Origin: Girardia tigrina
Lineage: Eukaryota
DNA length: 64,000 bases
Assembly (NCBI GenBank): GCA_001938485.1
Contig: MQRK01248872.1
Span: 1 to 64,000, forward strand
Direction: 5' to 3'
The notes under the pieces were generated by a model that was not told the origin of the DNA, did no database searches, and was given only the letters and a program-made list of their open reading frames with translations. Below, piece by piece: positions 2,431 through 50,800 of the stretch. Both the position numbers and the translations under genes were made by a program. Each line of letters starts with the position of its first letter. The first letter of the stretch is position 1.

Positions 2431-2869
2431 ACATGTATTAAAAAACACAAATGAGCAAACAAGGTTTTTTTTTGAAAATATAGTATGCATATATATATAT
2501 ATATATACTTAGGCTGCCTCAAAAGTCCCCAAGTGGCCTTTAAAAACTCACTAATATTTTACCAAATTTAACCAAATTTGGATTGAATATTATTCAGACT
2601 GTCATAAATACTGTGTTAAAATTTCAAAGCATAAAATTAAAAAAAAGGTAAAATTTTGTTTTGCCATTAATTCCCAATAATATTTTCATAAATAATAATG
2701 TTTAATTTTTTTGTTACCTTTTAAAGTAAATTATATCTATTAAAATTGTATTATTCAAACAATCAATATTCATTTACTAAACATCCGAAAATTGCTGATG
2801 ATGATGTTATGTAAACATTGAAACATGTCCAATAATTATATAAAAAAAGCATTCATGAAATTATATTTT

Positions 2870-18300: not shown

Positions 18301-21300
18301 AGATTAAGTAAGATATACACAAAAGTTGAGAAATATACTACGATGTTTGAATTTAAATGTGTGTGTTTTAAACAAGGAAGTTATTTTTTAAAATTTATAT
18401 AATAATAATCTTAAAAATATCTAAAAATAATAGTTATTTAGTTATAGTTATTTATTTATTTAGTTATCTTTTATTTTGTAATAATTATACTTTTTTATTT
18501 ATAAAATAAATATATCAAAAACAACAAAAAAACGAAACTTTTTAAAGAAAACGAATATATTTATTTACCGTATATTTCAATTTTTGCCTTTGCCACCGGT
18601 AAATTGAATTTTTCGAATCCTTTATTGGTCGCGGAGCACCGTATAGATTTCCCATTTAAAAGCTGATTAACTTTGGCTTTTAAAGTACTGAAAGTGTCTC
18701 GCCTTTAAAAAAAAATAATGAATTAACATTAATGAAATATTGATTTTTTTTTCTTTTTTCTTGTTTTTTTTTCATTTATCAAAAATCTAGATTCTTAATC
18801 AACAAATATTTTTTAAACCTTTAAATGAAATTGTAGAAAAAAAATGTTTTTTTTAATAAATAATTTACTCTTGTTATACAAAATAAAAAAATATTTTTTT
18901 AAGTTATATTTTTTATATTGATTTAATTATTTTTTTATTTAATTAATTTATTTATTTATATTAAAAAGTGAACACCATTTTTCAAAATTTATTATAATTT
19001 GTATTCAATAATTTTTAAAATAAAATTTTTTTTAATATTATGATTTTTAAGGTTTTTGTACGTATAACTCATAAAATATATAATATATAATCGATAAATA
19101 TATTGTTCTATATTTGGTTTTTTTGAATATTATAGGGACATGGCTGAAACCCGATATTAAGTAAAATGATCAATTCCAACTTATTTTTTGTAATTACGTT
19201 TAACTTTTAGTGTAATATGTGAACTACGTGGAGGAGAAGAGCGAGACCTTTCTTATTTTTGTCCCAATCTAAATTTACGAAGTTATGGATATAAATAATT
19301 AGAACGGAACGACGGATTGTATCGTTTAACATGGTTATGATCGATCGCCGGATTTAAGCCGTTTAGTTAAATAATTCTTATGAAGGTTTACTTACAAGTT
19401 TCACTTCGCCAAATAATTTATGGATTTTTGTTTGAATTTAAAAATGTCAAAAAAATAAAAAAAATACAAAAAGTTAAAATTGATTTTTAAATTAAAAGAA
19501 ACAAAAATTAAATAATTAATTTAATACAAAAAATGTTTACATTAATAACAACTGATATATTTTAATAGGAAAATAATTATTGGGTTGACCAAAAAGTCAT
19601 TGCGTTTTTGAGTACCTCCTAATACAAAGCTTAAAAATATAAAATGATGTGATAAAATTTAAATTCAATTATATATTCTGAAACCTTAATTTTCAGACTA
19701 TGTTTATACAAAATATTACTTGATTTTGTTTTAATTTATTACTTTACCGTCAATTCGAAACGGAAAATCAAAATGAGCATATTCGTCATGTTTTGTTGCA
19801 TTATTTTCGCAAAGGGAAAACCGCTGTGCAAGCTCATAAGAAGATATGTTTTGTGTATGATAGTGACTCCTTAAAATTTCGACAGTGTCAATACTGGTTT
19901 TCTAAATTTCGTTCTGAAAAATGCACCACGCTCCAGTCGACCAGTTGAAGTTGATGGCGACAGAATAACAGCACTGATCAAATCTAATCCCCATATGACG
20001 ACAAGAGAAGTTGCAGAGACTCTGGAAATATCAAAATCAAGTGTTGGAAGTCATTTAAAGAAACTTGGATTCGTCAGTAAACTCGATATGTGGTTACCAC
20101 ATGAAATGAAAGAAATTCATTTGGTGAAACGTATAGATATTTGCGATTCCCTTTTAAAGCGAGAACAAAGTAATCCATTTATGAAGCGCTTGATTACGGG
20201 TTACGAAAAATGGATTGTTTACAACAATGTGGAACACCGACAATCATGGACAAAACGTGGTGAGCCTGCCAAAACGATCTCAAAAGCAGAAATTCACCAA
20301 AAGAAGGTTATGCTTTTTGTCTGGTGGGATTTTAAAGGAATTGTGTTTTTTGAACTCCTTCCGAGGAATGAAACCATCAATTCAGACAGATATTGTGGTC
20401 AGCTGGAGAAATTGGCTCATTCAATTCAACAGGAACGTCCTGAATTGGCAAATCGAAAAGGAGTTGTAATCCAGCATGATAACGCAAGACCGCATACAAG
20501 TTTGACTACTCACCAGAAAATCACTGGGTTGGGAGGTTTTGCCGCACCCACCGTATTCTCCAGACTTGGTCCCATCGGATTTTCACTTATTTAGATCACT
20601 GCAGAATTCCTTAAACAGAAAAAACATTCGCCAGGGATGATGACATAAAATCGTTCCTAGACGGCTTTTTTGCTGACAAAGTCAAAGGTTTTTATGAATC
20701 AGGAATAATGAAACTACCGGAAAGGTGGAAGAAAGTGATTGAAAATAATGGACAGTATATCGTGTAAAAATATTTGTGCATCATTGTCATTTTTTGATAA
20801 TAAATATTTTAGTAAAAAACGCAATGACTTTTTGACCAACCCAATAATAACAGTTTTAATAAGAATTTTAAAATAAATTACAAACGAATGAAAACTTATA
20901 TTTTTAAGAAATATATTTTTTTAAGTAAAATGCTTGTGATAAATTGAAATTAAATAAATGGATTTTGCGAAATGATTTAATTAACGAGAAATTTGTTTAT
21001 ATATGTGTAATACTGTCATTAATTAATTTTGTGTTAACTTTTGACATTGCAAACAGCGACAATGGCATAAACGTGACTGATAATTTGAAAAGTACAAAAT
21101 CGATGAATATTTTACCAAAATCATTAAGTAGCGTTGAAATGACCATTGCGTTTTGTTTTGTCCTCGAAAATCTTATACACTAATTTTAAGTTCGATAAAA
21201 GATTAGGAAGTGGTAAAAAATCGATGGCAGTATTCGAAGAAGGACAAACTGAGTGAACGTTTTATAAATAGGTTTTATTTTATATTTTTTTTCAAAAAAT

Positions 21301-24300
21301 CAAGATCTCTTTTGGTCTATTAATTTGTTTTACTGTTTTAATAGTAATGTAATTTTGACTTTTTTTCAACAGTAAAACAAGTTTTATTGAAAAATATTCA
21401 AATTTTATTCATTGAAACAGAATGGTGATTAATTTACGTCGATGTATTGAAAAGAATCTCTGTCAAATAATGACATTTTTTACTTCCATTGATATTATGG
21501 AAAACAAATGAGGAATTATTTAGTAAACAATTAATATAATTTCAAGAAATTTCTACAAATAAAATTACAAAAAAATATAATATAAGATATATTTTCAAAA
21601 CTTTTGTCCAATTAATTACTGTGATTAAAAAAATTGGTTTAAACGAAAGTTTTATCGGTAAGTTAACATTTATTAATAGCAAAATTTTTCAGTAACAAGA
21701 GTCGTTTTCATTAATGTTATCGTCATTACTTTGGATTATTCGTCTCCAACGAGGCTGCAACAAGAAAACTCCGCGGCGGTTAAACTCTGTCATTTTGAGA
21801 TATAGGCGTTTATCTTCAATGATGCGCATTCTGCGAGATCGAAAATAATGATAATCGAATGAGGAAACATCTTGGGTATATTGTTGATGCCTAAGAACAC
21901 ATCGACCCTATTTATCTAGGTTTTTGAAGCATCCAGTGTGAAACATGAGATCGGACGTTGTATTATTGAAGTCAACCACGAGCTGAACACAGTCCAATTC
22001 AATAGATTAAACCTCAGAAGTAATGGTTTAACCGCACGGATGGAGTTCCAAGTTAACAGGTACCGATTTCATCCACCAAACGCATTTTATACGTATCACT
22101 TTGAGGCGTCCGTTTTCTAAGTTGACCTGTACTCAACCATTGGTGTTTACGTTTCCGGTTATCATAGACAACCTATTTTACATCTTACGTCAAAGTCTGT
22201 TGCGATTCCTCACGGCTGAATTTGTGAAATATCTAAGAACGGTCGTTAATTCGCCGATTTTTCTGCATTTCGCTGAGTTAAAGACCTCTTGGCCACGTTT
22301 ATTTTCTGAATAATAGTTGTACGTGAATTCGTTTTCTTTTCTCACTTAAAGTCCGTTAAAATGTCTTATCATTTATTCATTTGTATACATTCCGAATTGT
22401 CTTCTTCATACAGTTACCCACATAAAGTTTTTTCATTTACTTTGACATGACATCCCCGGTATCCCGATACTTTAGGCAAGTTTTGAATAACCAAGTTTGT
22501 AAAATACTTCGCCCAAAACAACACGAGTACACTAAGAGGAATAATTCGTGCAAGTAAAAGGGAAATTGTTGGATTTGAGTTTTCCGGTAACGATGCTCGG
22601 ATAACAAGCGATCCGACAGTTGATCTAAACTTTCATGTAAATAATTTCGAGCAATTCTTATAATTTTTTAAAACTAATTTTTATATAACTGTTTAATTTT
22701 ATAAACCAACTTTCGTGGAAAAAAATTTGAAACTCAAATCTGTATGAAAATAGACTATCTTCAAATGTTCTTTTACAAAAGTAAAACATTTCCAAAAATC
22801 TTGAAGTTTTCTTCAACAAGAAAATGAAGTGACTTTGAAGAATCGTCACGCACTGATTTTTTTTATAATAATAAAAATAATCATTGAAATATTTTTAAAA
22901 TCAAAAAGTCGGTTTCGTTTCTCACAAAAATGGTACTCGGTGAGTTAAATGGGGTATGAATGGATATGATAGAGAATAGTGGAGTGTTCCGTCACGCTAT
23001 AAGAGATTGGAGAATATTCGGACTATTTCCTTCGTCTTAGTCCCAATGTTAACAATTTCTGAATTATCTTTACTTCTAAAAGATTTTTTGGATGCCAAAT
23101 AATTTCAAAAATATTTACGTTAACGAAACTTGAAAATAATTTTTTTCTTAAAGAATGGGAATATTACAGTCTTCTCCGACTAATCTAAACACCAAAAATG
23201 CACAAAAAACGTTCGGATTTGCCGATATTCGGTTAAGTAAGAAATCGAGTAATCCGAATAACTGTTCGAATTGACCTTTTGCATTTAAAAGGTAACTTCT
23301 TTCAACATAATCTCGACCCTATTTATTATTAATACTATTTATTTATAATAATTATTGAATTAGTTCATTGTAATTGGTATAAATGTCAAGGTATTCCAAT
23401 TTTTAAAGTGTTTAATTTAAATAGAGATACAAAAGATTATTAAAAAGAATATTAATGAGCACTTCAAAACTTCCTAAAATGAGTGAATGATCAAGATAAG
23501 AAATAAATGTGTGGCGAAATAAAGTCAAAAGAATGATCATCGAAGGATGTAGAGAAATTATAGAAAATGATATAAAAACTGTTTTAAAACGGATGAAAAT
23601 CTTAAACAAAAATAATATTAAAAAAATCAAAAATCTTTTTTAATAAAAGCGATTTTCAGATAAAAGTTTTCATTATTTTTCTAAACATATTTTTTAATTT
23701 TTCAAACATTAAATTAAAAATGTTTAATTAATACTGAAATGTATTTTAAAAACACAAAAATACTTTTCCAATAATTAAAAAAGAATTAAAAAGAATTTAA
23801 AACTGATTCTAAAAACTAATTTAAAAATTGTAATTATTTCTTTTGTATTTCGAAAAAAAATTAATTAATTAAATTAATTTTATAAGATTTTTATAAAAAA
23901 AATAGAGTTAACTTAAAATTTTCAAATAATTATAAAAATGAAGTTTTTTTAATTTATTTTTATTTATTTTTCAATTATTTTTTACAACATCAAAAATAAT
24001 AAAACAAACGATAGTAATAATAATAATATAATAAGAAGAAGAAGATGAATATTTAAAATAATAAAATAAATTATAAAAAATTGTAAATAATAATTTTTTT
24101 ATTTAATTAATTACTTACAACTTCGTTTCATTTTCGACTTTTCTTATTTCTTTAGTAATTGAACCACTTATTATTCCATTAAAATTTCCACTCTCGTCAG
24201 GGTTGATTGTGTCATTGTCAATCATCCACGTCAACGTCGCTCCTGGCCGACCTCTTTCAGCTTGACATCTAAGTACCATTAAATGACCATTGTCTACAAC

Positions 24301-24534
24301 AATTGGCGAATTTTCAAAACGTTGTTTTTCAGGTCCAGCTCCCTCATTCGTAATTTGGAAAATTTTCGGTGGTCCAGATGAAACTAAATTAATTTTGTTT
24401 TAATTAAGAAAAATTCATTTATTATTTTTTTATTCATTACAACGAAGTTTTCTTCTAGTTTTCATAATATATATATATATATATNNNNNNNNNNNNNNNN
24501 NNNNNNNNNNNNNNNNNNNNNNNNNNNNNNNNNN

Positions 24535-24567
<33 letters not shown>

Positions 24568-27500
24568 GCAATAATATAAGATTTATAAAATATAATATAT
24601 AATGAGATAATTAAATGTTGATTAATTTGAGATTTTCAGTAAATATTAATTTTCTTGCTATTTTATTCGATATTAATGCAAAATGTTTTATTTATTTTAA
24701 TTAAAGATTTTAAGAATTGACACGGCCTGACTTTATCGATTTTGAATATTAATTAATTGGTACTAGTTTCTGTATAACAGAAAACTTATTCCTTGAAAGA
24801 GACAAGATTCTATTTTTACAATGTAACCAATGTAACCTTAGTCCATCGACTTGATTGTGAATGCTCACTAATTCGGTTTTCGAGATGACTATACTCCAAT
24901 GAACAAGTATTTACACCAGTGACAATTCAAGCTATAAACGAGATTGGCTTGCAATCCACAAATCGTATTCGATTTATTTGAGAAAAATCTTTTGAAATTC
25001 GAATGTCATTGAAACCACTTTGACCAATAAATTATTAACTAAAAATGTAACTTTAATTAACATTTTATTATCTTACAAATTATAGTATAATTGCTGACGA
25101 TCGAATACGAAATTCCAAAACATGTACAATCGATTTCGTAAAAAAATGCTTTTAACAAAAATATTTTTCAAATATACATTCATGTATATATGTATATATA
25201 TATATATATATATACATAGTTTTAATTTATTAAAATTAATTAATATTATTATAGTCCATCTTCAATAACTTTTAAATTCCCGAATTATTTTTGAAATATA
25301 TGAGTAAAAATGTAAAATTCTAAAGAAGATAGTGGAGAAACTGTTTTGATATAAATTAAAGTGATAATACTGGGATTACAATTGAATTTATGACTTTAAT
25401 TCTCATCGGTGAGCATACCGTTCCTCGAGAGTAAAGTTACATGTTTGGACCAGGTGATCGCCCATGAACACTAATTAAAATAAAAAATATTAATACCAAA
25501 TATTAATTTTGAAAATAAATTGCAAATAGATAAAATAATTCAAATAATCATTTTATTTTATTAAATAAATAAAAAATAGTGACATTTTATTTTTGAACAC
25601 ATAATAACACCATGTTCAGAAAAAAATTATTATGACAAACAATTAATTTCGATGGTATAACCGTCGTTGCCAAGTCATAAAGAAATAATAAGCAAGCAGT
25701 GATTATATGTTCGGTGAATAATTGTGTCATCTAAACGCACTTTATATGGTCGATGACTCATTTACACATTAATCTTAGGATCTGAAGATCTGATATATAG
25801 TGCTTCACAGGCAACTCTCTCACGATAATTATTAACCTGAGCAGACAAGAAAAAAACCTTACTTTTTAAAATTATTAAAATTACTTTCGCACAAATATAA
25901 AATCGAAATGTATTTTGTAATAAATCTCTATTGTGTTCGGATCTCGTAAATCCATTTACATATAATTGATACAATGTCATATATATTGGAGAGACGTCTT
26001 GTCATGTTTGTAGAAGAATCCAAGAACATGGCTGTAATATGGGTGGAAATAATGTTAAAAAAACAAAGAAATGTTTTCTATTTGAAATGAAAAATGGAAT
26101 GTGAAGTATGAAAAATGGAATTATGTATCAGATCTTTAGATCCTAAGATTAATGCGCAAATAAGTTTCTTGACAAATTTATTGAGTGTTTTTAAATACCA
26201 AAATAACAATCACTTCTTGCATGTAAAAGTAGATTTAAAATTCATAATTTCTTTATGATCTGAATTTAACGGTTATACGTCGAAATTAATTGTCTTAGAT
26301 AGTATAAATATTCCTTTTTGTTTTCCATTCTTTGTACTTTTATTGACATAAAATTATGTATGCATCTTCAAATTACGTATTTATATATTACATCCAATAC
26401 CTTAGATATCTTAAAATTTTGTGAGAAAATGGGTGAGGTCGCAAGTTGGACATGGATACTTGCAACGTATAGGACACTTTTGAAAAACAAACATATTTTG
26501 TGGCTCTTTAGAACATGTAAAACGATATTTTGGGTTCTCTAAGGAGTCTAGATTGCCCACCCCTTCTCTAATATGTTTTTAATAATAAGAAATAAATAAA
26601 AAATAATTTTACCGAGAACTGTGACTAAAGCTTTATCGCTAACGATAGCATTATTGTTAACGGACGTTTGGCAGTTATAATCTCCTTCGTCGTACAGGTC
26701 CACGTTTGTGATTTGTAAGTCATAATAACCTGGAAAGAAAAAATAATAACGATCTAAATTCAATACAATTTTCTAATTGAATATTAAATTAATCGTCCAT
26801 ATTTGATGAATAAGAGATTGATACATTTTTCATCATGTAGTGATAATAAAATATTGTTTGAGAGAACGAAAGAGAGAGAGAGAGAGCGCGCGAGAAGAAG
26901 GAAAGAGAATATTTTTCAACATTAACATAGCAAAATGTACCAGTAAAAGTGACATACGAAATGCCTATTTTTTCAATAGATTTGGTAAACAAATTAATCG
27001 TTATGAAACACGAGGATAATTAAATGAACTCTTGATTGATATTTATCATAATTTCGTACGTAATAAAAACCGGAGATTGATAAACCGGAGAATGTAAAAA
27101 ACGCAACAAAACTTACGAAAACGTATTTGAACGATGTTTAGAGATTTTATTTATTTATTCTGAATGATTAATTTTTTTAAGTGGTCGTATTCAAAAGTCT
27201 CTTTCTGTATTAAGGTCAATTCATTAAGCTTGAAGTTTATAAAAAAAGAGATTGTAAGACTTATTTTGTTAATGAGACAGAAGATCGACAACAAATCAAA
27301 ACATACTAAATTTTAAGAATAGTTTGGTTTTATTATCAGTGGAAAGTCTTTAAAAAAGACACGGAAATTATTTTCTCATAAATAAATATTTGAAGTTTTT
27401 TTAAAAAGGCATATTATAACGGTTCAACCTTCAAATTGGAAAAAAATTTACTTAAGTATTTCTTAATTATTTGGTTATCAAATATGCAATTTGTAGGCAA

Positions 27501-30500
27501 ATTACAATAAATTAACAATATATTAATTTAACAATGATTTAACATTTTGTTATTCAAATTTTTTATCTTGGCTATTGAACACATCAATAAAATTAATAAA
27601 AATTATTGATAACTTGTTTTAATAATCAATATTTTAAAAAATGGAAAAGACAGAAAGTTGAACTATTATGAAGTACGAGTTCCTACGTGGAATCTCAGCA
27701 TTAAAAGCCATGCGAAACATCAATAGTGTATTTGGATACAATGTTTCTCTCGGAGTCGATAAGGAAGAAAAAGCATACAATGACGACATGAAGTTAACCG
27801 TGCAGTCGAATCCATCATACAGTGCTCATGATTTATCACTAACACTTGATGTTACAAAGAAAACAATATTGAATCACTTGACTCAAATTGGTGAGATGAA
27901 AAGGTTGGGTAAGTGGATTCTACATGAGTTGAATGAAAATCAGAAACAAAAGTTTTTGGATGCTTGCTGAATGATGATTTCTTGCTATAAATGGGACCAC
28001 CTTCTGAATCGAATCGTCACTTGCGATGAAAGGTTTACCCAATATGATAATTGCAAACGTTCAGCAAGTTGGGTGCACACGAATGAAACACCAAAGCACA
28101 GTCCAGAGTACAACATATATCAAAAGAAGTTGATAGTGAGTATGAAGTGGTCTGGCGCAGTTGAAATCCATTATGACTGGATGAAACCCGTATCATCCTC
28201 CATACTTACCAGACCTAGCCTAAACTGACTACCATTTCTTCCTTAATATAACAACTATTAGTTTATCTACTTCAAATTCAATTCTGAAGATACCTTAAAA
28301 TGACATTTAGGAGTTTATAGATTCTCGCCCACCAAATTTTTATTCTAATTGCCTCAACGAGCTGGCAAATGGCAAATGTGTGTTGATAATATGGTTGCAT
28401 ACTTAGATGAATGGTATAAATACTTGTTGATAAATTATGAAGAAACTTTGACTTTAGTTCTACAAATTTCATGTTTCATGATCTAATAAAAAATAAATAA
28501 AAGCAACATAAAAGTAAACAGTTTGTAATATAGACATTTTCAAGAATATTAGTATGTTCAATTCAATTATATAAAGAATAAATAATTAATTAATTTTAAT
28601 TAACATATAAAATTTTATGGATAATTAAAATTTCAATATTAACAAACAATTTTATAAAAACAGTTAAATAATATTTAATTATTATATACGTCAATGAACG
28701 TTACTTTTCTGGTTGACCCTTCCGAATTCTAAAGATATTTTTTTTAAATTCTGTGTTTAGTGAAGTGATAAAAAGTAATTTATGGAACCAAAATGAATAT
28801 GATCCTTCCAAATTGTTTGTTATGGGAATAATAATACTATATATTCTTTTTGATAAACTCACTAATTATCTGGTGAACCCCGTAAATTTAAAGTTAAAGA
28901 CCTTATTATTAAAAAACATCAAAAATCTATGAAACTATTGATACTTCATGCCCACAATTACCTTTTATTCAGTTTGATTCATATGGAATTTATATATTTA
29001 TTTTTTAATGTCATACTCGTCCCTCTTTCGCAATGTGTTATACGTTATAATTGAAATCAAGACAAATCAGCGGGAATCTTTTCCTGCTAAGTGAAATGAC
29101 GACTTGTTGATTTAAAAATGTTTAGATTAATGCGAGACTATCTTAAATACATTCAACATTTAACGGAGCCTTTCATAGGAACCATTAAATATTCGTTTGT
29201 AAAATATAATGAAGTTGGTTAAAGGTGTATAAGTAAGGAAACTTATCTACTGATATGTAAATATATAAATAAAAATAAATAATCACACAAAATAATCATC
29301 TTTTAGGAAATATAATATGAGATAAATAAAACAGTTTGGTTTAACTACAACGGAAGGAAGTAAAAGAAGATCAAATAAACAATTTATCAAGATTTTAAAT
29401 AGCAGGAAATGGATATCGAGAAGTAGACCAAACTACTTCGCTGTTAGAGTTTTAAAAGATGTAAACCTGAAAACAAATATTCCTTTGAAATAAAAGAAGA
29501 ACTAAAATTAGTCATTTGAAGAAATCGGAAATATTTCATATAAATATAAATAAAATAGATCGTAAAACACACGTTAAAAATACAAATTATTAATACTTAA
29601 TTTAGTTTAAAACTGAAATTTTATTAATTCTCTTATTTTGAAGAACTATTTCGAAGGATATCACATTTAAATAGCATTAATAATAAGTTAATTAAAAATT
29701 CATCTCGTCAAATAATTTATTTAGAAAAATCCAATTTAATATTATAATTTCAAAAACTAAAAAATAAAATAATGAATATGAAAGAAATATTGATTTTTGT
29801 TAACAAAAAAGTGAGAAATGAAAATACAAATGATGAAAGTTTTAAAGGAAAAGGATATCTTAGGATATTTTAATATTCATATGTGATTTCATTAATAAAA
29901 ATGTTGACAATCATGACTTCAAGTTATAATATTGAAAACAATCGAAATGCAACAAATGTAAAAAAACAATGGCAATTTATACTATTGATTAAAAAATGAA
30001 CGCCATTTTTCAAAATTTATTTTTGGTTTTTTAATGAATTTCGGAGGATTACCCGCCATCTAAAGACTATAAGCATTAGCTTTTTGCAGCTTATATATGA
30101 TAATAGTGATTATGTAATCAATTATGTCGTAAATTCTCTATTTGAAAATGTTAAACAGAGAAGTTAAACTTGAATATTAATTTTTGGATCCATGGATCTT
30201 ATTAATAAGGCCTCACACGTTACTCTCTCCCAGTAATTTTTAAATCGATTACACAGAATTTGAAAATCATTTGAACATGATAGAGCCTATATTACATAAT
30301 TGATTATATAATCGCCATACTCATACATAAAAAAAGCTAATGTTAATTTACTCTTAAGATGGCGGGTAACCAGCCGAAATTAATTACTAAACCAAAAATA
30401 AATTTTGAAAAATGGCGTTCATTTTTTAAACGCAACAAACATTATTAAAAATATATTTTTTTCTGTTTAAACCTGTTTTGATGTTTATCTTGAATCGACG

Positions 30501-32881
30501 CTCTTAAACCTTTCTTGTATTGAGGGGGAAGAAAGATTTATTTATACATTTAAAATATGCTGTTCAAAAAACTCAAAATTTTTACTTTTTACATAAAAGA
30601 AGAGACTTTTGTCAAAGGAATAAAAAACAATATATTTCTCCAAATTTCTGATCTTCAGAAAAAAACAGTCTGGTCAAAGATTCTACATCTGAGGACTAAA
30701 AATAAGTTGAATTATTAAATTATTTTACAAATAAAATAGGGAAAAATATTATTTCTTCTTTTCTAATTAACATAACTGTTCGAATCAGGCAGCAATAAAA
30801 CTTGTTTCCATTTCTACATAACTCGTTATTATACCCTATCAAAATACTTAATATAAATATAAAAAGATAAATTAGATAGATTATTTTTGTTATATTTTAT
30901 CGTCGTGTTTCCTCTTTTTTTATACTAGCAAAAAACTCTTCTTTTATATATTAATTACTATTTTTTCTAATATATCTCATTTTATAATATTAATTGATGT
31001 TTATATATTATTAATATAAACACAATTAAATTTAATTATTTCATATCACCTAAAATAATAATAATTAATACTATTAATTAGTTAGGTTTACCAAAAAATA
31101 TTATATTATATATATACATTTATTTATTAAAGCATTTTTTTTAAAAAATCAACGTTTGATATGTTTTGATCACAATCTTTGATCATCTTCAGTAACTTTA
31201 TTTGTGTTGTAATTTATTTTATTTTTATCGTTATTTTTTTCAATTTTAATGGTTAATATTGTATTTATTTTTTTCTATTTTATATAAAGGTATTTAATAT
31301 TGAGGCTGCTTTCCTTTTCCCATTTGGGATGTTAATCAATGGGTTAAAGTGTCTTATTAGCAATGATTTCCAATACAACCTCTCATAATGTGAATCAAAA
31401 TTCTTCTTAGAAATTGATGAAGTTTTATCTTTGCAACATTTGCATTGAAGAGGAATCTCACTCGATCTACTCGACTGTGAGTGTACACTAATCAGTGTTT
31501 TGAGATGACGATTTGTCTCTATAACATTTAAATATCAACTAAAGCAGATTAACCAGATTAGCTTTCCATTTCATTTTTGAATTTCACTGTTTTAACACTT
31601 TTTTAATATTATCGATATTTTTATAAATGTTATTCTTAAATCTTCTGAAACCTTCTGAATGAGGAATTTTTATAATTTTAACGCGCTCCTCATCATCCTC
31701 CTTGGTCTTGTTAAAGTGGATTCTATCTGGCATCAATTTAATATTAATTCAATTTTTTATTCGGATACATATTATTATTCAAACGTTTTATAAAGTATGT
31801 CGAATGCACTTGCAAATGTTGAGAAAAGATTCAATATTCTTTTAATTAAACCTTTGATCATACTTTCTTTTTATCTCTCTTCGCAGTAATATTGTATAAA
31901 GTTGTGTATCTATTACCTTTCTGTACTAATATGTTTCATAATTATCATTCATTCTTTTAACAAAAACATCCGAAATTATGTAGTAAAGTTAATATTATTA
32001 TGAATGGAGTTCATGAAGTTCAGAAATAGTTCTATGTGGACTTTGTTTTGGAGAACCAAGAAAATATCATCCACATATCTTTTATAAACAGAAGTTATTT
32101 CACCAATAAATGTATCCATGTGACTTTAAATATTAACCAATAATATTGAGCTTTAATATTATTTTATTAAAAATAGTTTAGATATCATGCTTGCCTTAAT
32201 ATTACTGGTTTTTTTATTTTATGCTCTTTTATGCTAGAAAATTCAACAATAACTGCGTAGGTATATCTTAGATTGTTACAAGAGAGGTTGTTGCGAGCTA
32301 TGCAAAAGTCTCAATGTGATAAATTTCAACACTACAACTAAACCAGGTTGAGGTACTAGGCCCCAGGCCTGACAGTTCACCTGACCTGAATCCTATAGAG
32401 AACTGCTGAGCGACACTCAGAAATAAGGTAACTGCTGTTTCGACCGACATCCTGGAACGATTTGAAAGAAAGAATCACTCAATTATGGTGCAGCAAAATC
32501 ACACCTTGAATAACACGTACAAAATATTAAAATGTAAAACGTTGGAATTGTTGTTTATCGTTGTATACTCAATATTTTGTGGAAAAATTATAACATCAAA
32601 TACGAGTTTTTACCATTCCTTCACAAAAGAAATATATTTTCCAAAAAACCGTAATATGATGGCAAGCGTGGTTGAAAATTACATGCAATTACAATTGTTG
32701 AAAAGAATTACATCATACGTCTCAAAAACATGCTTTTTTGCTTTTTTTTAAAAAAAAATATAGTTTTTCAACTATATAAATAGTAATTAATCTCTTTATT
32801 TCATTACACTGAAGATGCCGAAATGGTGAAACGCGTTTGTATTGGGAATAAATTTAATATTCAAAAATGGCCTTTGTTTGC

Positions 32882-33011: not shown

Positions 33012-36000
33012 TATTATTGATTTAAAAAATGAAATTTTTCCAAATTAAATTAAAACAAATATTTAAATTATGTTTTCTCTTTTAATAAATAATACGAAAA
33101 ACTCGATTAACAGGTGCCAATAGTGTTTTTTTGTTAATTAATTATACACATTAATGAATTCCAATAATAAATAATAATATAAAGAAAATAACACTTGGTG
33201 TTTTAATTAATGCGAACATGGTTTCGACGAAAGGCAATTCTGTGGCAATGTTATGAAACATTAATTAGCAAAATCTAGAAAATTAAAGACATTGACACAG
33301 AGACTTTATCGCGCCGCAATATCAGTTTTGTTTTGCATCTCTCCAATATTATTAATGAAAACCGATGCATTAAAACAACAAAATCCACGAACACACCAAC
33401 AGCACCGGTTGAAGTATTCCATAACAAGTAAAGAAGGGAATTTTTCAAGCTAATTATATATAAAATAGGAATATCAAACTTAGTTTTTCGTTTTGTTTTT
33501 TAATCTCCATTGCTGTATTGATAGACCGGTAAAAATTGGCATGTCAATGATAATAAACGGCACCGAAACAGACAATTTTTGGATGAAGATGTAAGAATGG
33601 CAGAAGTATGGAGGATAAATTAAAACAGTTGTAGGTCGAACAGATGGAATAATTATATAACAAAACCAACAAATAATTATATTTATATTTATTTATGTAC
33701 GTATAATGCAACAAGTAAACTGGAGAAATTTCCGATGGGACCGTCGATAAAAAAAAATTTTTTAATGTTTCAGTTATCATTATTTATATTAAAAAAATAA
33801 TTTTTAATTGAGGTATCAAAGAAGTTTCAATTTATCATTAAGTTTATTAAGTTAATTTTAGAATAATAAATTTTAAGCATGCAATGTGAATTGTTATGGT
33901 TTACTTTTAAAGACACTTATTCAAAATATATATTTACTTAATTTATTTATTCGATTTAATATATTTACAAAATTATACAAAAACAATGATTTAAATTAAA
34001 TATATTTATTAAAGTAATTATTGATTCAAAGTAAAAGCCGAACAGGAAGAAGGTTAATTAATAAAATTACTATGAATTTTTAATTATTTATTTATATAAA
34101 AGCGAATATCTGCACGTGCAGACTCAAAAACTATCAAACGATTGATACCAAACTTTGTAAAAGTTTTGTAATCAGCATCAAGATGGTTTCTGTTAAAAAA
34201 TAGAATAAAAATTGTGTGAAGTGGTTGCAACATCAATATCAGAATTCCTTTTTAACGCCAAAATTTATTAATATATTAACAATTCACATATTTAAACAAA
34301 TTTTTCTGTTAATTTAATTATCTCGCCACAGATTAATCTATTAAATTTTTTTCGATTCAATTTTTAAAATCTTGCAAATTTATTAAATAATTTTCTCATT
34401 AAAACTAAAATTTATTTAAATTTCTTTTATAACTTTTATTAAAATATATAAATTGTTATGACTGTAAAAATATTTTTATTTATAAATAAATATTTAATGG
34501 TTTTCTTATCATTTTTAATTTTAAGATATTTAATAGATATATTAAAAAGATATTTTTTATTTTTAAATAGATATTTAATTTTTTTTATGATTTTCTTTTA
34601 TATCATTTACAATTTTAAAATATTTTATAAGCATATTAACATTAAAATATTTTACCTTTTAAATTAAAAAAAATAATAAATTATTCTGGCGAGTTGCAAA
34701 TTTAAATTAAACCCTCATAAAAAAATGTTTAAAAATTAATTTTTCTACCTATAACTGTTTTTCTTAATTTTTGCTATGTGGTCTAATTATTTGAAGAGGT
34801 ATACCTCAAAGATATACGTGGCGATGATACTGATACACAACTGAGATAAGAAAATTATGGAATTTATTTTTTGTATCGGTCCAGTGGTGATGGAGCGAAA
34901 ATCAGAAATCCATTGTTTTTGTTTTTTGTATATGGATTCACATTGCAACGACACATGGACACAAGTGTGATACGAAAAGAACCGGCATTACTAGTCAAGT
35001 ATCCCAGTACCAGACTGCGCTTGTTTTGATCTACCGTTGTGGAGTTTTATTGATAAAGGACCATTGTCAATGAAATCACCTCGGTCTCCGTTACCCGTTA
35101 ACCATCAATTTAAAAATCATTTTACTTGCAAAGGAAAGGTAATTCAAAACGGTATATCGATTTTTCCAGTATGACAATCCATTGAGCAGTAAATTTTGAT
35201 TTTCACCTGTTTTTAATTTAGCTGCAGATTTCCCACATCAGTTTGGAGGTTTTTATATGAAAAAAGTACATTGATATCATATACCATTTCCAAGCCATTA
35301 GTATAATTTTCCAAACCAATAGTATAATTTTCTAAATCATATACATTAAATTCGATACGAATGGAAGCCTTTGTCCCCCGAAATGAGAACGTTCATTCCA
35401 ATCCCCTCCGGATAAATCCCGTGGTCGATGAGTCATTGGGACCGAAATGATTTACTTGACGACGTTCCTTTTATTGATATAACTGGACTGTGAGTGTTCA
35501 CTAATCCGTGTTTTGAAATGGCGATTTGTCTCTCCAATTAACGAATAAATGTGGCAATTAAATGTATAAACCAGATTAGCTTTTCCTAAATTATGAATTT
35601 TGGGTTTCAATGTAAGGTAATGTCTTGCATGTTGTGGATATTATTTAACTAAATTCTCTATATTTTTATAAATGTTATTCTTAAATATTCTGAAACCTTC
35701 TGAATTAGCAATTTTAATAACTTTAACGTCTTTGCCTTTCATTCTCCTTCCTCGTTTTGTTAACATGGATTCTATCAATAGCATCAATTTAGTAATTTTC
35801 TTTACTTGTTTATAAAAAATAATAAAATATTAACCAATAAAATTAAAAAAACTATCAAAATAAAAAATAATAAAAAATAAAATAAATTACAAAAACAAAT
35901 AAAGTTGCTAAAGATGATTAAAGATTGTGATCAAAATATGTCCAAAGTACCAAATATATATACAAATAAATTATTTTATATAAAAATATATTTTTATAAT

Positions 36001-39000
36001 ATCATTTATTTAATATTATTTAATATATAATAATATAATATTATTTATAATATAATATTATAATATAATATGATTTATTTCGTGATATGTTCAGTAATAA
36101 ATCTCCCACTCCTCTCGGTTTGTGCTCCGATCTTGTTTATAAATATACATGTAATGGGTGTAACGCCACATACATTGGAGAGACATCTCGTCATCTCTGT
36201 GAACGGATCAAAGAGCATTGTCGGTTGGATAATGGGAGCAATATTGCCGAACATTATTTAAAATGCAAAAAGAAAATCGGAGAAAATGATTTTAAAATTC
36301 TGTGTAATCGATTTAAAAATTACTGGGAGAGAGTAACGTATGAGGCCTTATTAATAAGATCCATGGATCCGAAAATTAATATTCAAGCTTCACACTCAAC
36401 TTCTCTGTTAAACATTTTCAAATAGAGCCTTTATTACATGATTGATTATACAATCACCTTCTCATATATAAGCTGCAAAAAGCCAGTGTTAATTTAGTCT
36501 GAAGATGGCGGGTAATCCGCCGAAATTAATTACGAAAATAAATTTTTAAAAATGGCGTTCACTTTTTAATAATGAATATCAATTGCCATTATTTTTTACA
36601 TTTCTTAGTAAATATTATTTATTTATTTATTATTTTTTTAAAAATAAAATATTCATATTAATTTAAAGAAAATACTCAATAATAAAAATATTATTAATAA
36701 ATTTAAAATCGGAAATTATATTTATTGAATTTATGAAATTTATTTCTATTTTTCTCTTTTATCGTTCGAATTTCAATTAATTTACAAAACGATGTCTAAT
36801 TTTTTTCGTTTTCTCTTTATTAATTTCGTATTTATTTTTAATTAAAAAATGTCAGGAATTATTTTATCTTATTACGAAAAAAAAAATAAAATTGATAATA
36901 ATTTTCTATCACACACAAAATTTTGTTTAAATTGATAAATTTTTATTTGAAAAAAATATTTCAAATAGGAAAATGATTAAAGAGAAATAATTTATTTTTT
37001 TCGTATAAATATTTGATGGATTTAATTGTCACATAAATCGAAACCGTTTTTTTTTGTAACCAAAAAAAACTTTAAACGATTTTGTTTGAAAAGAATCGTT
37101 CTTTTTTTCTAAAATAAAAATCGATTTTATTTGAGATATTTATCTTTTTTTCTGATTTAAATAAAAAACACAATTTCCTTTTCCATATTTATTGACGGAT
37201 ATTTAAAATTTTGGACAAATAAACAGATCGTTTTCGATGCAACACATTCAACAAGTTTCTTCTTTCCAAGAAAAAAAACCTTTCATAAAATGCATTAATT
37301 TATTTTTATTAAACAGCGGAAATTTGGCTGAGTTTTATATTTTTTCTGTAAGTTTTTTGATCATCACAAAAGTAATACCCGGCGGTTTTCCTTTTCGTTT
37401 AGCAAATACATATATATACATAGTTTTTGTTTTAACAAAATGAGAATTTTATTTTTTTTATATTTTATAAAAATAATATATAGTTCGACTTATTAGTGCT
37501 TCTTTTTATTTGAAGTCAATTAATTTTATTATAATTATATGTTTTTCTTTTGTTTAGTGAAACTGGGTCATTTACTTTGGACGTCAAATTATAGGTCGGG
37601 TTGATAAATAAGTCATGATGCTTTTATACACATTGGACATATATAGGGTACATGTTCGACGCCAAAAGTGTGGAGCTTGAGTCATGCTTGGCATGCAGTC
37701 CCATATCTATTGACTTTCCTTGACCAGCACTCATGAGAATATATTCCACTGAACACCATTGTCCAGGGGATCTATCGAGCCCGCAAATTTGCTCAGAATC
37801 GCGGAGACTTCGTCCTTTAGCGCTGCCTTGAAGAAAGCATTATAATCATCAATTTGATTTGCGTCAATTAACGTAAGCGGCTGGCACTTGGTATAATGAC
37901 TCCTAAACTAAAAAACTGTTCTTTTTTTAAATGCACAGTAAATGAATCATTGTCAATTTTATTTTAGTCACAAAAACTCAAAACGTATGACTGACTCGGC
38001 TGTTTTAGTTTTAAAGATCTTGGAATTCTAAAACTTCGTTGGTGATTTGTTCCTATCGTCTCAATCGTTGAAAAATCGATTCGAAACTGTTTGAATGGCC
38101 TCAATTTATGCAGGATGTATACTCGTTCGTCCTTTTAAATACTTGTTGGTTTCTATGTGGATATGGAAGGTTTTTTGGAAATTATAAGGCTTGCTTTTGT
38201 TGTTAAAACATTCTTTGTGTTTATACTATTAAAAGTAAATACAAAGTTTTGTATGTTAAAACAAGGTTATACAAGAATATAACAGTTCAATTATTATCAA
38301 AAAGAAAGTTTTTCTTTTTAAATATTTTTAAAAAATCTTTTATTAATTTATATTTGAGGAAATCTGGAATGTGGGGAAGTAAGCAAATCTAAGGGATAAA
38401 ACAATTTTACCGTTATTTGATGGCGTCTGGGAGTTGTAGGGGCCTCCATCACACCCGCGCACGACGCGGACCGATATGGTCGGGAAGGAAGTCACAGGAC
38501 TATGAGTGATGTAGAGGAAGTCCATTAATTGATTTATTGATCGATTTATGTATTATTAAATAATATTGCAAATCGATTCAAAAATCGCAAAAAACTCGAG
38601 AATAAGAGAAAATTTCCATGATTTATAGAACAAATATATTTTTTTACAAAGATATCAAATCCTTTCGAATTGGCACAATCACTGAGACAATATTTAAACA
38701 ATTGTTATTTTCAGATCGAAATGTTATTTGGAAACAAATAACAAATAATAAGTAATTTTAACAGAGATACAATCAGTCAAAACTTCAATAAGTCGAAGAA
38801 CTCCGTAGAATGTTGATAGATTTGGGAGTTTTGTTTTAGTCAGGAAAAGATTGTCGAGTAAAAGTTATGAGTTATTTCCGTGATGATAATGGATCGTCGA
38901 AGGTATTTATAATTCGGATAATCAATTCGTATTATTTCAATTCTTGGTAAGAGATAGCAACAAAATAATTAGTTCATTTGTGGAAAAGTAAGTTTTTTAA

Positions 39001-42000: not shown

Positions 42001-42618
42001 TCAGACATTTCAATAAATGATTAAAAATACGATTACATGTTGTAGATTAAAAATAGGAAAACATATACACTTCTCTCTACATACAGATGAGTATTTCATT
42101 CAAATCACGTAAGCATTCATAAAAATCTAAAAAGTGTTTTATTCCTACTGTCAGCATAGAATAACAGTTTCACACCTAATGCACTTCCTGTACTTCCTCG
42201 TCTCAGATCAAGATAGTATTTTTTAAAAAGTTTTTTTTTAATTGAAAAAAAAATTATTTATTCATTGTATCCATTTCAATTAAAAACAGTTATTTTTGAC
42301 TCTCTTTCAGTTTAAACAAAAAAGTAATCGACGATAATCGAATTGAAAGATAAGCCCACCTTTCTCAAGGTTATTTGGTAAATCATAGCGAAAGTTGTTT
42401 CCGCTCTGGCCGTATTGACGAATATCACTGCGTGTGTCACCGAGTCCAAATCCATTTTTCACCCATTGGACTTTTGCATTAGTCGATGGGTCTATACGAC
42501 ATAATAATGTGACTGTGCTGTTCAGAGTGACTGTTTGCCGCTGTGGATGAACGAGGATTAGATTTGGATTTGATACCACAACTCTTAGTAATATCCAGAT
42601 TACAAGATGTTTAAACAT
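3207..42618 (-). CDS. Multi-exon NEPH/Kirre/SYG-1 (IRM)-like Ig-superfamily type I membrane protein (signal peptide, 5 Ig domains, TM); 3' end off-window
   Basis: Join (minus strand) 42618-42360, 26729-26613, 24383-24119, 18702-18569, 14796-14679, 14230-14085, 7929-7666, 7613-7463, 7170-7022, 3326-3207. All introns are GT..AG and phases match, giving one open frame of about 574 aa. VQWVKNGFGLG in Ig1, five Cys-Trp-Cys Ig folds and no FnIII before the TM fit the NEPH/Kirre architecture rather than nephrin. Confidence 0.88.
4595..4665 (+). ncRNA. Degenerate PLE-type hammerhead (diverged relative of 36493)
   Basis: Upstream ATAAGCTTCAAAAATCAATGTTAAGTTAGT aligns with 36467-36498. Sequence TTAGT-CTGAAGA-T-AATTT...AGATT-ACAAA-TATT-ACTAA; the GAAA is mutated. 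Confidence 0.55.
5671..6080. mobile_element. Non-autonomous Tc1/mariner-type element (MITE)
   Basis: TIRs CAGTGCGTTCAAAAAGTAACTGTGCACCT / AGGTGCACAGTGACTTTCTGAACGCACTG, with TA on both sides. Confidence 0.9.
6083..6798 (+). mobile_element. Internally deleted mariner
   Basis: 28-bp TIRs TTAGGTGGTCCTAAAAGTTCCCGGTCAA / TTGACCAGGAACTTTTTGGACAACCTAA with TA TSD. Motifs RIVTSDEK, KIMLCVWW and HPTYSPDCAPSDYGLF. Confidence 0.92.
7022..7170 (-). CDS. Coding exon 9: C-part of Ig5
   Basis: KYTIFTE...SILNLNNVDSNDFGFYNCSATTEMGTDSKTMILSKT. Acceptor TTTCAG, donor GTAAAC. Confidence 0.92.
7463..7613 (-). CDS. Coding exon 8: N-part of Ig5
   Basis: SKPFISENPDRTATIGKSIQIKCVINSIP...IMWFHRGRRI. Follows a 52-bp intron; acceptor ATTCAG, donor GTAAGG. 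Confidence 0.9.
7666..7929 (-). CDS. Coding exon 7: Ig4
   Basis: YGPQF...VGDNVKLTCISDSNPPSSIYWQR...QDFGIYICTA...LAKR. Acceptor CTATAG, donor GTATAT. Confidence 0.92.
10013..11235 (+). mobile_element. Decayed mariner split by an inserted repeat
   Basis: TIR-like TCGGGTTGTGAAGAAAGTTCG, an HTH remnant (FYKYTTGDFNLTD) and ICDTL at 10480-10493. The transposase resumes after 11022 as PFLKKIVIVDEKWIV...KKTMFCL*LDFKG...DKYCSQL. Confidence 0.75.
10494..11014 (+). repeat. Dispersed TGTGAGGAATATTTT-ended repeat, copy A (solo LTR or MITE)
   Basis: Shares the blocks TGTGAGGAATATTTTAAAT, CTCCCACCCAGATGGAAA, TTAGAACGATG and GTTCTTAAT with the copies at 13033, 43883, 46914 and 47315. Confidence 0.75.
12215..12900 (-). 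mobile_element. Ty3/Gypsy pol remnant (RT N-terminus)
   Basis: Reads KPSSNWCTPI...DHRRLNIITTEDEYPAP...GTIKIFNKIDL, resembling the Gypsy RT motifs SPW.SP, DYRxLN, D.YP.P and FSKIDL. Disrupted by stops. Confidence 0.7.
13033..13527 (+). repeat. TGTGAGG repeat copy B (TG...CA), candidate LTR of the adjacent Gypsy remnant
   Basis: Runs TGTGAGG...TGTTACA. A PBS-like TGGTGCAACC lies about 30 nt beyond it on the minus strand, toward the RT remnant. Confidence 0.6.
14085..14230 (-). CDS. Coding exon 6: C-part of Ig3
   Basis: RWFINENEV...NKAVVKCVANNTKEGHAQQVLRVK. Acceptor TTTTAG, donor GTAATT. Confidence 0.9.
14679..14796 (-). CDS. Coding exon 5: N-part of Ig3
   Basis: VEPTVTMEIL...ENEWITIICSAVGRPDKFTW. 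Acceptor ATTCAG, donor GTATTT. Confidence 0.88.
17180..17500 (+). mobile_element. Penelope-like element GIY-YIG endonuclease remnant
   Basis: DVVYRLQY...TFIGETFRHFCSRIQE...ERVIFEEMYIRSLDSKNNV. Confidence 0.8.
17600..18330 (-). mobile_element. Decayed Tc1/mariner-superfamily element
   Basis: HTH-like N-terminus LTTLERVQIAESYKVWRSIIEVER...QIDAKTIKNYHEKL and a degenerate SPDLTPLDF-like block near 17660. Confidence 0.6.
18569..18702 (-). CDS. Coding exon 4: C-part of Ig2
   Basis: LRDTFSTLKAKVNQLLNGKSIRCSATNKGF...KIEIY. Acceptor TTTAAAG, donor GTAAAT. Confidence 0.9.
19580..20844 (+). mobile_element. Near full-length inactive mariner (mellifera-like)
   Basis: TIRs TTGGGTTGACCAAAAAGTCATTGCGTTTTT / AAAAACGCAATGACTTTTTGACCAACCCAA with TA TSD, 1265 bp. 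Motifs WLPHEM, ITGYEKW (first catalytic D replaced by Y), HDNARPH and frameshifted YSPDLVPSDFHLF. Confidence 0.95.
21780..22400 (-). mobile_element. Highly decayed mariner transposase
   Basis: YDNRKRKHQW, CVWW and HQQYTQDVSSFDYHYFRS, the last a degenerate HPPYSPDLAPSDYHLFRS. Confidence 0.65.
24119..24383 (-). CDS. Coding exon 3: N-part of Ig2
   Basis: VSSGPPKIFQ...LMVLRCQAERGRPGATLTWMID...ENETK. Acceptor ATTTAG, donor GTAAGT. Not present in the supplied ORF track. Confidence 0.9.
24466..24562. repeat. (TA)n microsatellite containing an assembly gap
   Basis: TA repeats flank the N run at 24485-24534. Similar tracts occur at about 2872-2903 and 32884-33004. Confidence 0.9.
25625..26300. mobile_element. 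Inverted pair of Penelope-like 3' ends (GIY-YIG plus degenerate hammerheads)
   Basis: Minus copy NYRERVACEALYIRSSDPKINV (about 25625-25880). Plus copy YIGETSCHVCRRIQEH...IRSLDPKINAQ (about 25940-26300). Each ends in the hammerhead-like sequence ...GTC/ATC GAAA TTAATT GT. Confidence 0.8.
26613..26729 (-). CDS. Coding exon 2: C-half of Ig1
   Basis: GYYDLQITNVDLYDEGDYNCQTS...ALVTVL with the DxGxYxC motif. Acceptor TTTCCAG, donor GTAAAA. Confidence 0.92.
27471..28486 (+). mobile_element. Decayed cecropia-subfamily mariner related to Dtmar1
   Basis: MEKTE..IMKYEFLRG, KWILHEL, RIVTCDE, QKKLIVS and HPPYLPDLA*TD, with degenerate TIRs. Confidence 0.85.
29954..30428. mobile_element. Inverted pair of Penelope-like 3' ends (same family as 36087-36600)
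   Basis: 29954-30272 is the reverse complement of about 36285-36605. 30281-30428 is a plus-strand copy of the same 3'UTR. Both carry mutated hammerhead cores. Confidence 0.88.
31150..32120 (-). mobile_element. Penelope-like retroelement remnant: RT (YVDD), GIY-YIG and 3' hammerhead
   Basis: YKRYVDDIFLV...LFLNFMNSIHNNINFT at about 31980-32090, then ETNRHLKT.IS.H and SLLIRHFNPLINI. Hammerhead-like CTGAAGA-TGATC...GATC-AAAA at 31155-31198. Confidence 0.88.
32340..32500 (+). mobile_element. Tc1 transposase C-terminal fragment
   Basis: PDSSPDLNPIENC*ATLRNKV. Confidence 0.75.
32795..32852 (+). ncRNA. Minimal type I hammerhead ribozyme (PLE-type), intact core
   Basis: TTTATTTCATTACA-CTGAAGA-T-GCC(GAAAT)GGT-GAAA-CGCG-TT-TGTATTGGGAATAAA. 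Stem I ends pair, stem III is the palindrome ACGCGT, and the cleavage triplet is GUU. Confidence 0.72.
35480..35960. mobile_element. Penelope-like fragment (family of 31150-32120) with an inverted 3' end
   Basis: Minus strand ANLVYTFNCH...IGETNRHFKTRISEHSQSS. A degenerate plus-strand hammerhead CTAAAGATGATTAAAGATTGTGATCAAAATATGTC lies at 35908-35942. Confidence 0.78.
36087..36605 (+). mobile_element. 5'-truncated Penelope-like element: open GIY-YIG domain and 3'UTR
   Basis: ORF 36087-36425 reads SDLVYKYTCNGCNATYIGETSRHLCERIKEH...SNIAEHYLKC...ERVTYEALLIRSMDPKIN, showing VY..CxxC..YIG, the catalytic R/E/N residues and a CCHH motif. Confidence 0.92.
36493..36537 (+). ncRNA. Minimal type I hammerhead ribozyme in the PLE 3'UTR, intact core
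   Basis: TTTAGT-CTGAAGA-T-GGCGG(GTAAT)CCGCC-GAAA-TTAA-TT-ACGAAA. The sister copy at 30386 has ACTAAA, which gives a perfect stem I. Confidence 0.78.
39321..40584 (-). mobile_element. Full-length young mariner, Dtmar1-like, with interior in an assembly gap
   Basis: Identical TIRs TTAGGTTGTTCGATATGAAACGGGTCAAA with TA TSDs. ORF ends MEISEIRILMKYEF... and ...CVDNMGGYFD* flank the N gap at 39433-40350. Confidence 0.93.
42360..42618 (-). CDS. Coding exon 1: signal peptide and N-half of Ig1
   Basis: MFKHLVIWILLRVVVS-NPNLILVHPQRQTVTLNSTVTLLCRID...VQWVKNGFGLG...NNLEK. Acceptor TTTTAG lies 1 nt before the ATG; donor G|GTGGGC. Confidence 0.9.
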
Positions 42619-43195
42619 TCTAAAACAAATAATAAAATATTCTAACATTCAAAGATAATGAGATCTATATGCATATACAACTGAAGTTCGTTTTTAATAA
42701 TTATTGCTGTGTTCGTGATCAATGATAGAGTTCATGACACAATTATTTATTATTATTTTAAAATCTCTTGTTTAAATAATATCCACTTATTTAATTTATA
42801 GCTTATGTAAAATGTTTTTAAAAATACTTTTTAAGCTCCAATTTTAAATAAATATTTTAAATCGTACAATTATAAAATTTTATATAAGAACATTGTAGAA
42901 TGTTTTACATTTTTCTTTTTAAATTCAAAAAAATTACGAGCTGTCCAAATTCCTTACAGTTATAATGAAATAACTACTAAAATATGTAGTAATCATAATG
43001 TTTTGGATATTCACTTTAAAATTCTAATAATAAACTCATTAATTTTACTTTTTATGTCATATCCGTGAGAGTTGTTTGGGATTTATCATAGTATTTTAGT
43101 CCTAATTATTCATGTTTTCAAAACATTTTACTCTAGAATTGCTTGAAATAAATAATTTTCAGCAAGATTGAGTGTTATTATTATTACGTTCAAAA

Positions 43196-50319: not shown

Positions 50320-50800
50320 TTTAATGACAATATATTTCGACGGATCAAATCATGCTAATCAAAAATTCTCAATAAGCTGGTTGAGAATGCCGATTGAACA
50401 TGGATTTTAGGACAAAGCGAGTTAGTTAACAATATTTAACATGGCACTCTTCCAATGACTATCAAAATGCTTACACAGAATCTTGAAATCATCAATAATT
50501 ATATCACATTTACATTTTTTCCTATGTTCTACAACATTGCTCTTACTCTCTTTGTAAAAAATGTTCTTGAATTCGTTTACTGAGATTACAGGCAGTCTCT
50601 CCAATGTATGTGTCACGCAGCCATTACATTTATATGCATAAACAATATCAGAACAAAGTATTAAAGGTTTAATTTAATAATTTATTTATTTCTGAACATA
50701 TTTTGAATTTGATAAAATTTTAAAATTTAATTCATAGTTAGTTGCTTTTAACAATACATTTTTAAAGGTTTTAAATCCTTCAGAATAAGACGTATTATTA
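50320..50800 (-). mobile_element. Penelope-like GIY-YIG remnant with a partial hammerhead
   Basis: LCSDIVYAYKCNGC..TYIGETACNLSKRIQEH...SNVVEHRKKC...DDFKILC. The 3' half of a hammerhead, CCGTC-GAAA-TATA-TT-GTCAT, lies at about 50323-50343. Confidence 0.8.

Follow-up and report, generated by a model that had tools for sequence, protein, structure and literature searches.

A predicted minimal type I hammerhead in the pseudo-LTR of a solitary, truncated Penelope-like element of Girardia tigrina

We analysed a stretch of 64,000 nucleotides of Girardia tigrina DNA (contig MQRK01248872.1, positions 1 to 64,000; hereafter the window), in which a hammerhead-like motif lies close to the end of a Penelope-type endonuclease frame. 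The motif is carried by a copy of a retroelement family that we call F1 (Table 1). This copy is 540 bases long and 95-96% identical to 39 other best-scoring places. Because its relatives reach upstream by varying lengths, we read it as a 5′-truncated insertion; a target-site duplication was not callable in its A/T-rich flanks. Its GIY-YIG remnant stands in a 118-residue stop-to-stop frame with a Pfam GIY-YIG match that, at 21.8 bits (E 2.4e-4), falls slightly short of the 22.6 cut-off. The frame closes with the TAG at 36423-25, which lies 68 nt upstream of 36493 and 74 nt upstream of C3 of the motif, in agreement with an earlier sequence-only reading of this DNA that had put the distance at about 70 nt.

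On both sides of the element there are Ig-domain exons on the minus strand, and the hammerhead likely lies antisense in an intron of an Ig-domain gene. Exon-like Ig-domain frames were seen at 42310-42648, 24118-24399, 7661-8074 and 6957-7304, all (-), and likely form one large cell-adhesion gene spanning the element, which we take to be nephrin/Kirre-like. A search with one Ig exon found no homologue, and Atlas hits were mostly labelled Arthropoda, on few records. Other Penelope RT/endonuclease remnants are found at 17146-17496 (+), 25753-26195, 50361-50790 (-), 3911-4510 (-) and 31787-32152 (-). A Mariner-type transposase remnant occupies 19875-20594 (+) (Pfam Transposase_1, E 2e-28), with similar fragments near 6097-6381 and 27662-27970.

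Table 1. Features of the F1 copy and of its hammerhead motif, in window positions.
Feature	Position	Strand	Basis or remark
Family F1 copy: 5′-truncated Penelope/Poseidon-type 3′ end (ORF end, pseudo-LTR, long tail)	36079..36618	+	ends placed by aligning it with L068 and L062, which are longer
C-terminal GIY-YIG endonuclease remnant with CCHH-type residues	36079..36425	+	92% identical to the L068 endonuclease
TATA box TATATAAG, promoter function predicted	36465..36472	+	31 nt before the initiator A
Stem I, 5′ arm	36493..36498	+	2 contiguous pairs at 36497-98, mismatch at 36496, three U-A pairs at 36493-95
Initiator-like TTAGTC, predicted transcription start A36496 inside the stem I 5′ arm	36494..36499	+	family comparison
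Core C3-A9 (CUGAAGA, 36499-36505) and extra U (36506) before G10.1	36499..36506	+	sequence
AUG at A9, extra U and G10.1, where the RT ORF of full-length copies likely starts	36505..36507	+	frame in longer copies
Stem II, 5 G-C pairs and an optional G.U, with loop	36507..36521	+	pair probabilities 0.99-1.0; G-C to A-U change between families
GAAA (36522-25), palindromic stem III AUUAAU (36525-30), U17 (36531)	36522..36531	+	sequence, family comparison
Stem I, 3′ arm (codons 10-11 in the frame of the ORF)	36532..36537	+	sequence, frame in longer copies
Optional tail between the two preferred F1 3′ ends	36566..36618	+	window copy has the long end, +114 from AUG

From 36493 to 36537 the window reads TTTAGT CTGAAGA T GGCGG GTAAT CCGCC GAAA TTAA T T ACGAAA, a pattern that corresponds to a minimal type I hammerhead with C3 at 36499, A15.1 at 36525, U16.1 at 36530 and U36531 as H17. 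The sequence-only reading had described CUGAAGA-U-GGCGG/CCGCC-GAAA with an AUU triplet at this place, and the letters bear it out: the stem II arms are 36507-11 and 36517-21, the ATT is 36529-31, and the cut is predicted between 36531 and 36532. The marks of a minimal hammerhead (min-HHR) are present as a CUGANGA core with GAAA, an NUH triplet and a palindromic helix III that can form only in a dimer, and the short helix I of this class appears at variant level, with 2 pairs in F1. The extra nucleotide between A9 and G10.1 is present (U36506), and the G10.1-C11.1 pair is G-C in 9/9 families.

Stem I consists of U36498-A36532 and G36497-C36533, followed by an A.G mismatch and then three U-A pairs. 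The description of the motif as intact has to be qualified for stem I, where only 2 pairs are contiguous. Decay of the window copy is ruled out as the origin of the mismatch, which is the state of the F1 family. Indeed, a 2-pair stem I was found in 33/33 distinct F1 copies, in a count where F1 copies were defined in part by a close match in the 5′ arm; with these positions left free, the third pair was formed in 4, and A stood at 36496 in 99, of the first 100 matches listed (counted by eye). Furthermore, the window copy departs from the F1 majority at 5 positions, every one outside the motif.

The palindrome of stem III is likewise present, although its extent differs from the one first given. 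The 8-base palindrome AATTAATT (36524-31) is ruled out as stem III by hammerhead numbering, because it begins with core A14 and ends with the cleavage-site U17, both of which have to remain outside the helix; this leaves the 6-base AUUAAU. This stem is conserved in 32/33 F1 copies, and U17, giving the triplet AUU, in 97 of the first 100 F1-pattern matches listed. AUUAAU cannot close as a monomer hairpin and needs a second copy; a U at position 17 could let an A14-U17 pair lengthen stem III into the core.

No Rfam hammerhead covariance model matches the window at E ≤ 10, and a 66-nt monomer folds no better than shuffled sequences (z -1.04). The reality of the motif therefore rests on copy number and covariation. 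In genome G000 the pattern CTGANGAN{12,24}GAAATTAATT, which joins the core to an AUUAAU stem III, has 5,701 matches against 17 in a reversed control, and the F1-specific pattern has 1,496 exact matches against 0. Sister families with an AUUAAU stem III and AUA or AUC sites account for 7,279 matches (69 in the control), and other families with an ACAUGU or ACGCGU stem III and mostly a GUC site for 13,474 (24 in the control). In some sister families AUAUAU replaces AUUAAU, so that the palindrome is kept, and H17 varies between U, A and C across families, G being found only in rare copies.

For covariation we took one hand-picked copy from each of nine families with a 33-nt core and aligned them without gaps. 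In this set, where kinship among the families can inflate the test, 81.7% of cells were paired against 71.4 ± 2.5 after shuffling (0/500 shuffles reached the observed value), with all slid controls below the true alignment. The covariation score was 0.300 against 0.137 ± 0.033 (0/500 shuffles), in line with the stem covariation and core conservation that had been put forward as a check on the motif. The two stem I pairs adjoining the core had both sides changed in 7/18 cells. Two of five covariation measures were no better than shuffles in these nine families (81/500 and 208/500), and the outer three stem I columns were unpaired in 4-5/9 of them. Within F1, comparison of 29 copies gave no excess conservation of the motif over its flanks, with 1-3% variation everywhere and no sign of selection on the motif, as expected of dead insertions. 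Taken across families, these data argue that the motif is a real minimal type I hammerhead of a Penelope-like element (PLE).

Hammerhead-like motifs of other families occur elsewhere in the window. The one at 2795-2827 (+) belongs to another very abundant family, with an ACAUGU stem III, a GUC site and a 4-pair stem I, and its G10.1 faces U. At 32809-32837 (+) the motif follows a TATA box and combines an ACGCGU stem III with U17; its relatives in L149 and L159 have A17. Decayed motifs lie at 63957 (-), 35908 (+) and 31192 (-), the last directly after a GIY-YIG remnant; the motif at 35908 faces away from the GIY-YIG remnant at 35452-35829, like an inverted pseudo-LTR (pLTR). A further GUC family, with a GAC/GUC stem I, has copies (L107, L120, L126-L131) that end within ~50 nt in (TA)n and show almost no PLE protein match; it is possibly non-autonomous.

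Longer relatives place the motif in the architecture of a complete element. In two of them (L166 and L164) it stands on both sides of the RT-endonuclease ORF, 2,764 and 2,247 nt apart, with RT followed by a C-terminal GIY-YIG; in L165 a gap at the 3′ end falls where the second motif would be. This arrangement, together with the families described above, supports the proposal of the sequence-only reading that a PLE carries in its pLTR a minimal type I hammerhead whose palindromic stem III can form only between two copies. Another relative (L069) matches RVT_1 with E 1.8e-12. The RT of F1-type elements has the DKG motif (KYDKGNG) and not DKA or DKT, and no match to a CX2-5CxxC zinc-finger linker was found in the longer F1 copies. 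RT, DKG, absence of the linker and a C-terminal CCHH GIY-YIG are given as marks of the Penelope/Poseidon clade (PMC8557442), and by these marks the element appears to belong with this clade of EN+ PLEs; the homologues found for it are nearly all unnamed. Measured from the core AUG, F1 copies end at +61 to +76 in 24/49 cases and at +96 to +115 in 21/49; of the others, 3/49 run into the ORF and 1/49 ends at +40. An optional tail of this sort is known in PLEs. Inverted junctions of a truncated pLTR against an element, typical of PLE insertions, were seen at L007, L021, L022, L062 and L158, and several of this set stop only a few bases from the initiator or the core.

The core itself likely provides the start of the ORF in full-length F1 copies, to judge from reading frames. 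In 3/3 longer F1 copies the core AUG and the RT ORF share a reading frame, the next methionine (Met42) lying 123 nt further on. A9-U-G10.1 reads AUG in 85/89 distinct cores, and of six variants in which the F1-type core differs in length, five are +3. From residue 12 onward the frame of family F3 is homologous, with Leu at the position of Met42 in F1, and full-length homologues from other sources begin ~25-35 residues before the Met42 position. In GUC families of G000 the frame from the core AUG mostly stops early (the search pattern required ATG). As a general rule for PLEs a core AUG was rejected, being present, by eye, in only ~10/56 motifs in Fig. S3 of PMC4209133. The core AUG is also spanned by AAGATGGCGG at 36502-36511 (+), which is lacking in sister families. 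We take AAGATGGCGG to resemble the YY1 binding motif.

Just upstream of the core, TTAGTC at 36494..36499 presumably matches the initiator consensus, and with the TATA box it predicts a transcription start three bases before the core, in stem I. The spacing between TATA box and initiator is 31 in 25/33 F1 copies. TCAGT, TTAGT or TCATT stands at the matching place in sister families, and most sister copies keeping both signals have 28-31 nt before TCAGT or TCATT; a pair with such spacing occurs at 0.5% of window positions. A strict initiator was found in 0/9 copies of family F2, and a strict TATA match was absent from both F6 copies. The distance to the core goes with the length of stem I: when the initiator A is 3 nt from C3 (F1 and F4) stem I has 2 pairs, and when it is 6-7 nt away there are mostly 3-5. 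TATA box and initiator have been published in the pLTR of Adineta (PMC3846280), and our literature search, mostly of open-access papers, found no work tying a transcription start to the stem I of a PLE hammerhead.

The same letters could be read as TTAG|T, the 3′ end of an intron, as in D. virilis Penelope, in which case splicing would give a different and possibly longer stem I. F1 and F4 do have YAG at 36495-97, and the D. virilis intron runs up to the 5′ end of helix I (PMC4209133) and overlaps the promoter (PMC2377424). Against this, the corresponding letters of F3 are TCATT, which contain no AG, the site keeps its 28-31 nt from the TATA box, and the 130 nt upstream contain only three GT, none in a good donor context. 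Furthermore, 0 of 15 listed joints (of 24, from contigs of four runs, which show presence only) was a GT-AG joint ending there. We consider an intron improbable.

In a full-length F1 element the TATA/initiator promoter of the 5′ pLTR would start an RNA at the equivalent of A36496, three bases before the core, and the stem I of the 5′ motif would have only 2 pairs because the RNA would begin there. The RNA would then run through the ORF to the motif of the 3′ pLTR, and pairing of the two AUUAAU palindromes would give a 6-bp stem III and a double hammerhead in which each core may act on its partner, cutting it after U17. If the 5′ motif were cut, the RNA would lose its cap and the first nine codons; cuts at both motifs would free a unit-length RNA. 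As a whole, the proposal that one 40-base stretch serves as transcription start, start codon and ribozyme, with the length of stem I set by the start site, and that pairing of the 5′ and 3′ hammerheads removes cap and AUG and turns a messenger into an RT template, seems to us rather doubtful. If true, such a switch from messenger to template would give PLE hammerheads a concrete job.

Nearest-neighbour models put an F1 dimer with one active site at -18.0 kcal/mol against -32.0 for the dimer minimum; the stem III duplex contributes -0.2 kcal/mol, and pair probabilities for stems I and III are ≤ 0.03. Not only in F1 but also in the AUC and AUA sisters, the active fold lies 10-14 kcal/mol above the dimer minimum, so that this handicap does not single out F1. 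It is in line with the low, dimer-only activity described for min-HHRs (PMC4209133) and with the need for protein of the Anolis element PAc (PMC11167929). AUU is reported as middling among NUH triplets (PMC8879150). We put the chance of assisted cleavage in full-length F1 elements at a little better than even.

The high energy of the active fold also fits another reading, in which the F1 motif no longer cuts and persists for other roles: it marks the promoter start, provides the start codon and N-terminal coding sequence, and may form a fold that the element's protein binds. Its 2-pair stem I with one U-A pair, its A/U-only stem III and a U17 able to pair with A14 in a dimer could all be signs of this. 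Core, stem II and stem III are also coding, and protein constraint could keep them without catalysis. In the reported PAc experiments, core mutants left in vitro insertion unchanged and no RNA ends were seen at the cut site (PMC11167929), and Naiad PLEs are described as spreading without hammerheads (PMC8557442). However, the stem I pairs that adjoin the core change on both sides (7/18 cells) though the 5′ arm is non-coding, H17 is U, A or C with G in rare copies only, and stem III stays palindromic through change (AUUAAU versus AUAUAU). Loss of cutting seems to us rather unlikely. We favour, with a probability of roughly 80%, the reading that the F1 hammerhead is a family-standard min-HHR in a Poseidon-type pLTR, likely inert in this solitary copy, and that full-length copies would cut weakly, in pairs and probably helped by protein.

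The activity of the solitary window copy is expected to be very low. Having no same-strand partner and no RT, and being antisense in a likely intron, it would not cut the host transcript. A decayed F1 copy with a broken core at 29960-30271 (-) cannot partner it in one transcript because it lies on the opposite strand. The undamaged TATA box, initiator and motif, facing against the host exons, might suggest that the Ig-domain gene has recruited the window copy, either as an antisense promoter or to cut RNA. We regard this as highly improbable: the copy differs by ~4-5% from its relatives, the same as they do among themselves, is one of at least 1,496, and shows no excess conservation.

Hammerheads in PLE pLTRs were described in 2014 by Cervera and De la Peña (PMC4209133). 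Metazoan PLE min-HHRs in that account share with F1 the type I core, the extra base before G10.1, the G10.1-C11.1 pair, a palindromic helix III, an NUH site, presence in both pLTRs and thousands of mostly solitary truncated copies. Their consensus line has a 3-pair helix I, whereas F1 has 2 pairs and a helix III with a 2-nt palindromic insertion. Contrary to the suggestion that an A/U-only stem III and an AUU site are unusual, both are already drawn in Fig. S3 of PMC4209133, where by eye U17 occurs in 24/56 motifs and AUU in at least 5 (as in F1, among them D. rhopaloa, D. elegans and D. ficusphila), and where several motifs have an A/U-only helix III, that of Drosophila being an A/U-only 6-base palindrome. 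The figure further includes 2-pair helices I in Drosophila (several), Culex and Oikopleura, as well as a PLE motif of S. mediterranea. Hammerheads in PLE pLTRs, A/U-only stems III, AUU sites and 2-pair stems I are all known since that publication. The D. virilis Penelope variant shares with F1 the 2-pair helix I and the A/U-only 6-base palindromic helix III (PMC4209133); unlike F1, it has two G-C pairs in helix I, a bulged helix II and C as the extra base, which leaves it without an AUG (PMC4209133), and it has a TATA-less upstream promoter with an intron ending at helix I (PMC2377424).

In PAc, the Poseidon element of Anolis carolinensis (Frangieh et al. 2024, PMC11167929), the ORF likewise starts at stem II and the cut lies 26 nt from the start codon, as does the predicted cut from the core AUG in F1. 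Two preferred 3′ ends define its tail, 111-118 nt into the ORF, compared with +96 to +115 and +61 to +76 in F1. PAc cleavage was measured, only with protein, whereas F1 cleavage is a prediction from sequence; a transcription start inside stem I, predicted for F1, was not seen in what that account gives on PAc (PMC11167929). The Penelope pLTRs of Adineta vaga (Arkhipova et al. 2013, PMC3846280) share TATA box and initiator, the first ORF codons in the pLTR and an optional tail (31-bp in Adineta); the account predates the hammerhead finding and, as far as it bears on this, draws no link to stem I. Non-LTR retrozymes (bioRxiv 10.64898/2026.07.22.740005) share a type I hammerhead from PLE pLTRs and are described as non-coding tandem repeats, each unit with a hammerhead; in contrast, the window copy is solitary and has a coding GIY-YIG remnant, which sets it apart from them.

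What is added here is the core AUG as likely start codon, already published for Anolis PAc (PMC11167929), and the predicted transcription start beside the core. The finding itself matters little and its residual value is as a test set. The role of PLE hammerheads is described as still an open question (PMC8557442, PMC11167929), and the sister families of G000, which have the same stem III, AUU, AUA or AUC sites, a 2- to 5-pair stem I and a sharply predicted start, would make it possible to test directly if the cut governs translation or the use of the RNA as template.

Assembled RNA contigs from two leaf-litter libraries of one study cover F1, one of them spanning the cut site, and DNA may be present in these libraries; contigs from 4 of 21 runs were compared with 36090-36600, and they show presence, not start, end, strand or cleavage. 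Runs under six coded organism labels and a leaf-litter metatranscriptome contain 0.12-0.52 of the F1 words; close relatives or horizontal spread may account for this.
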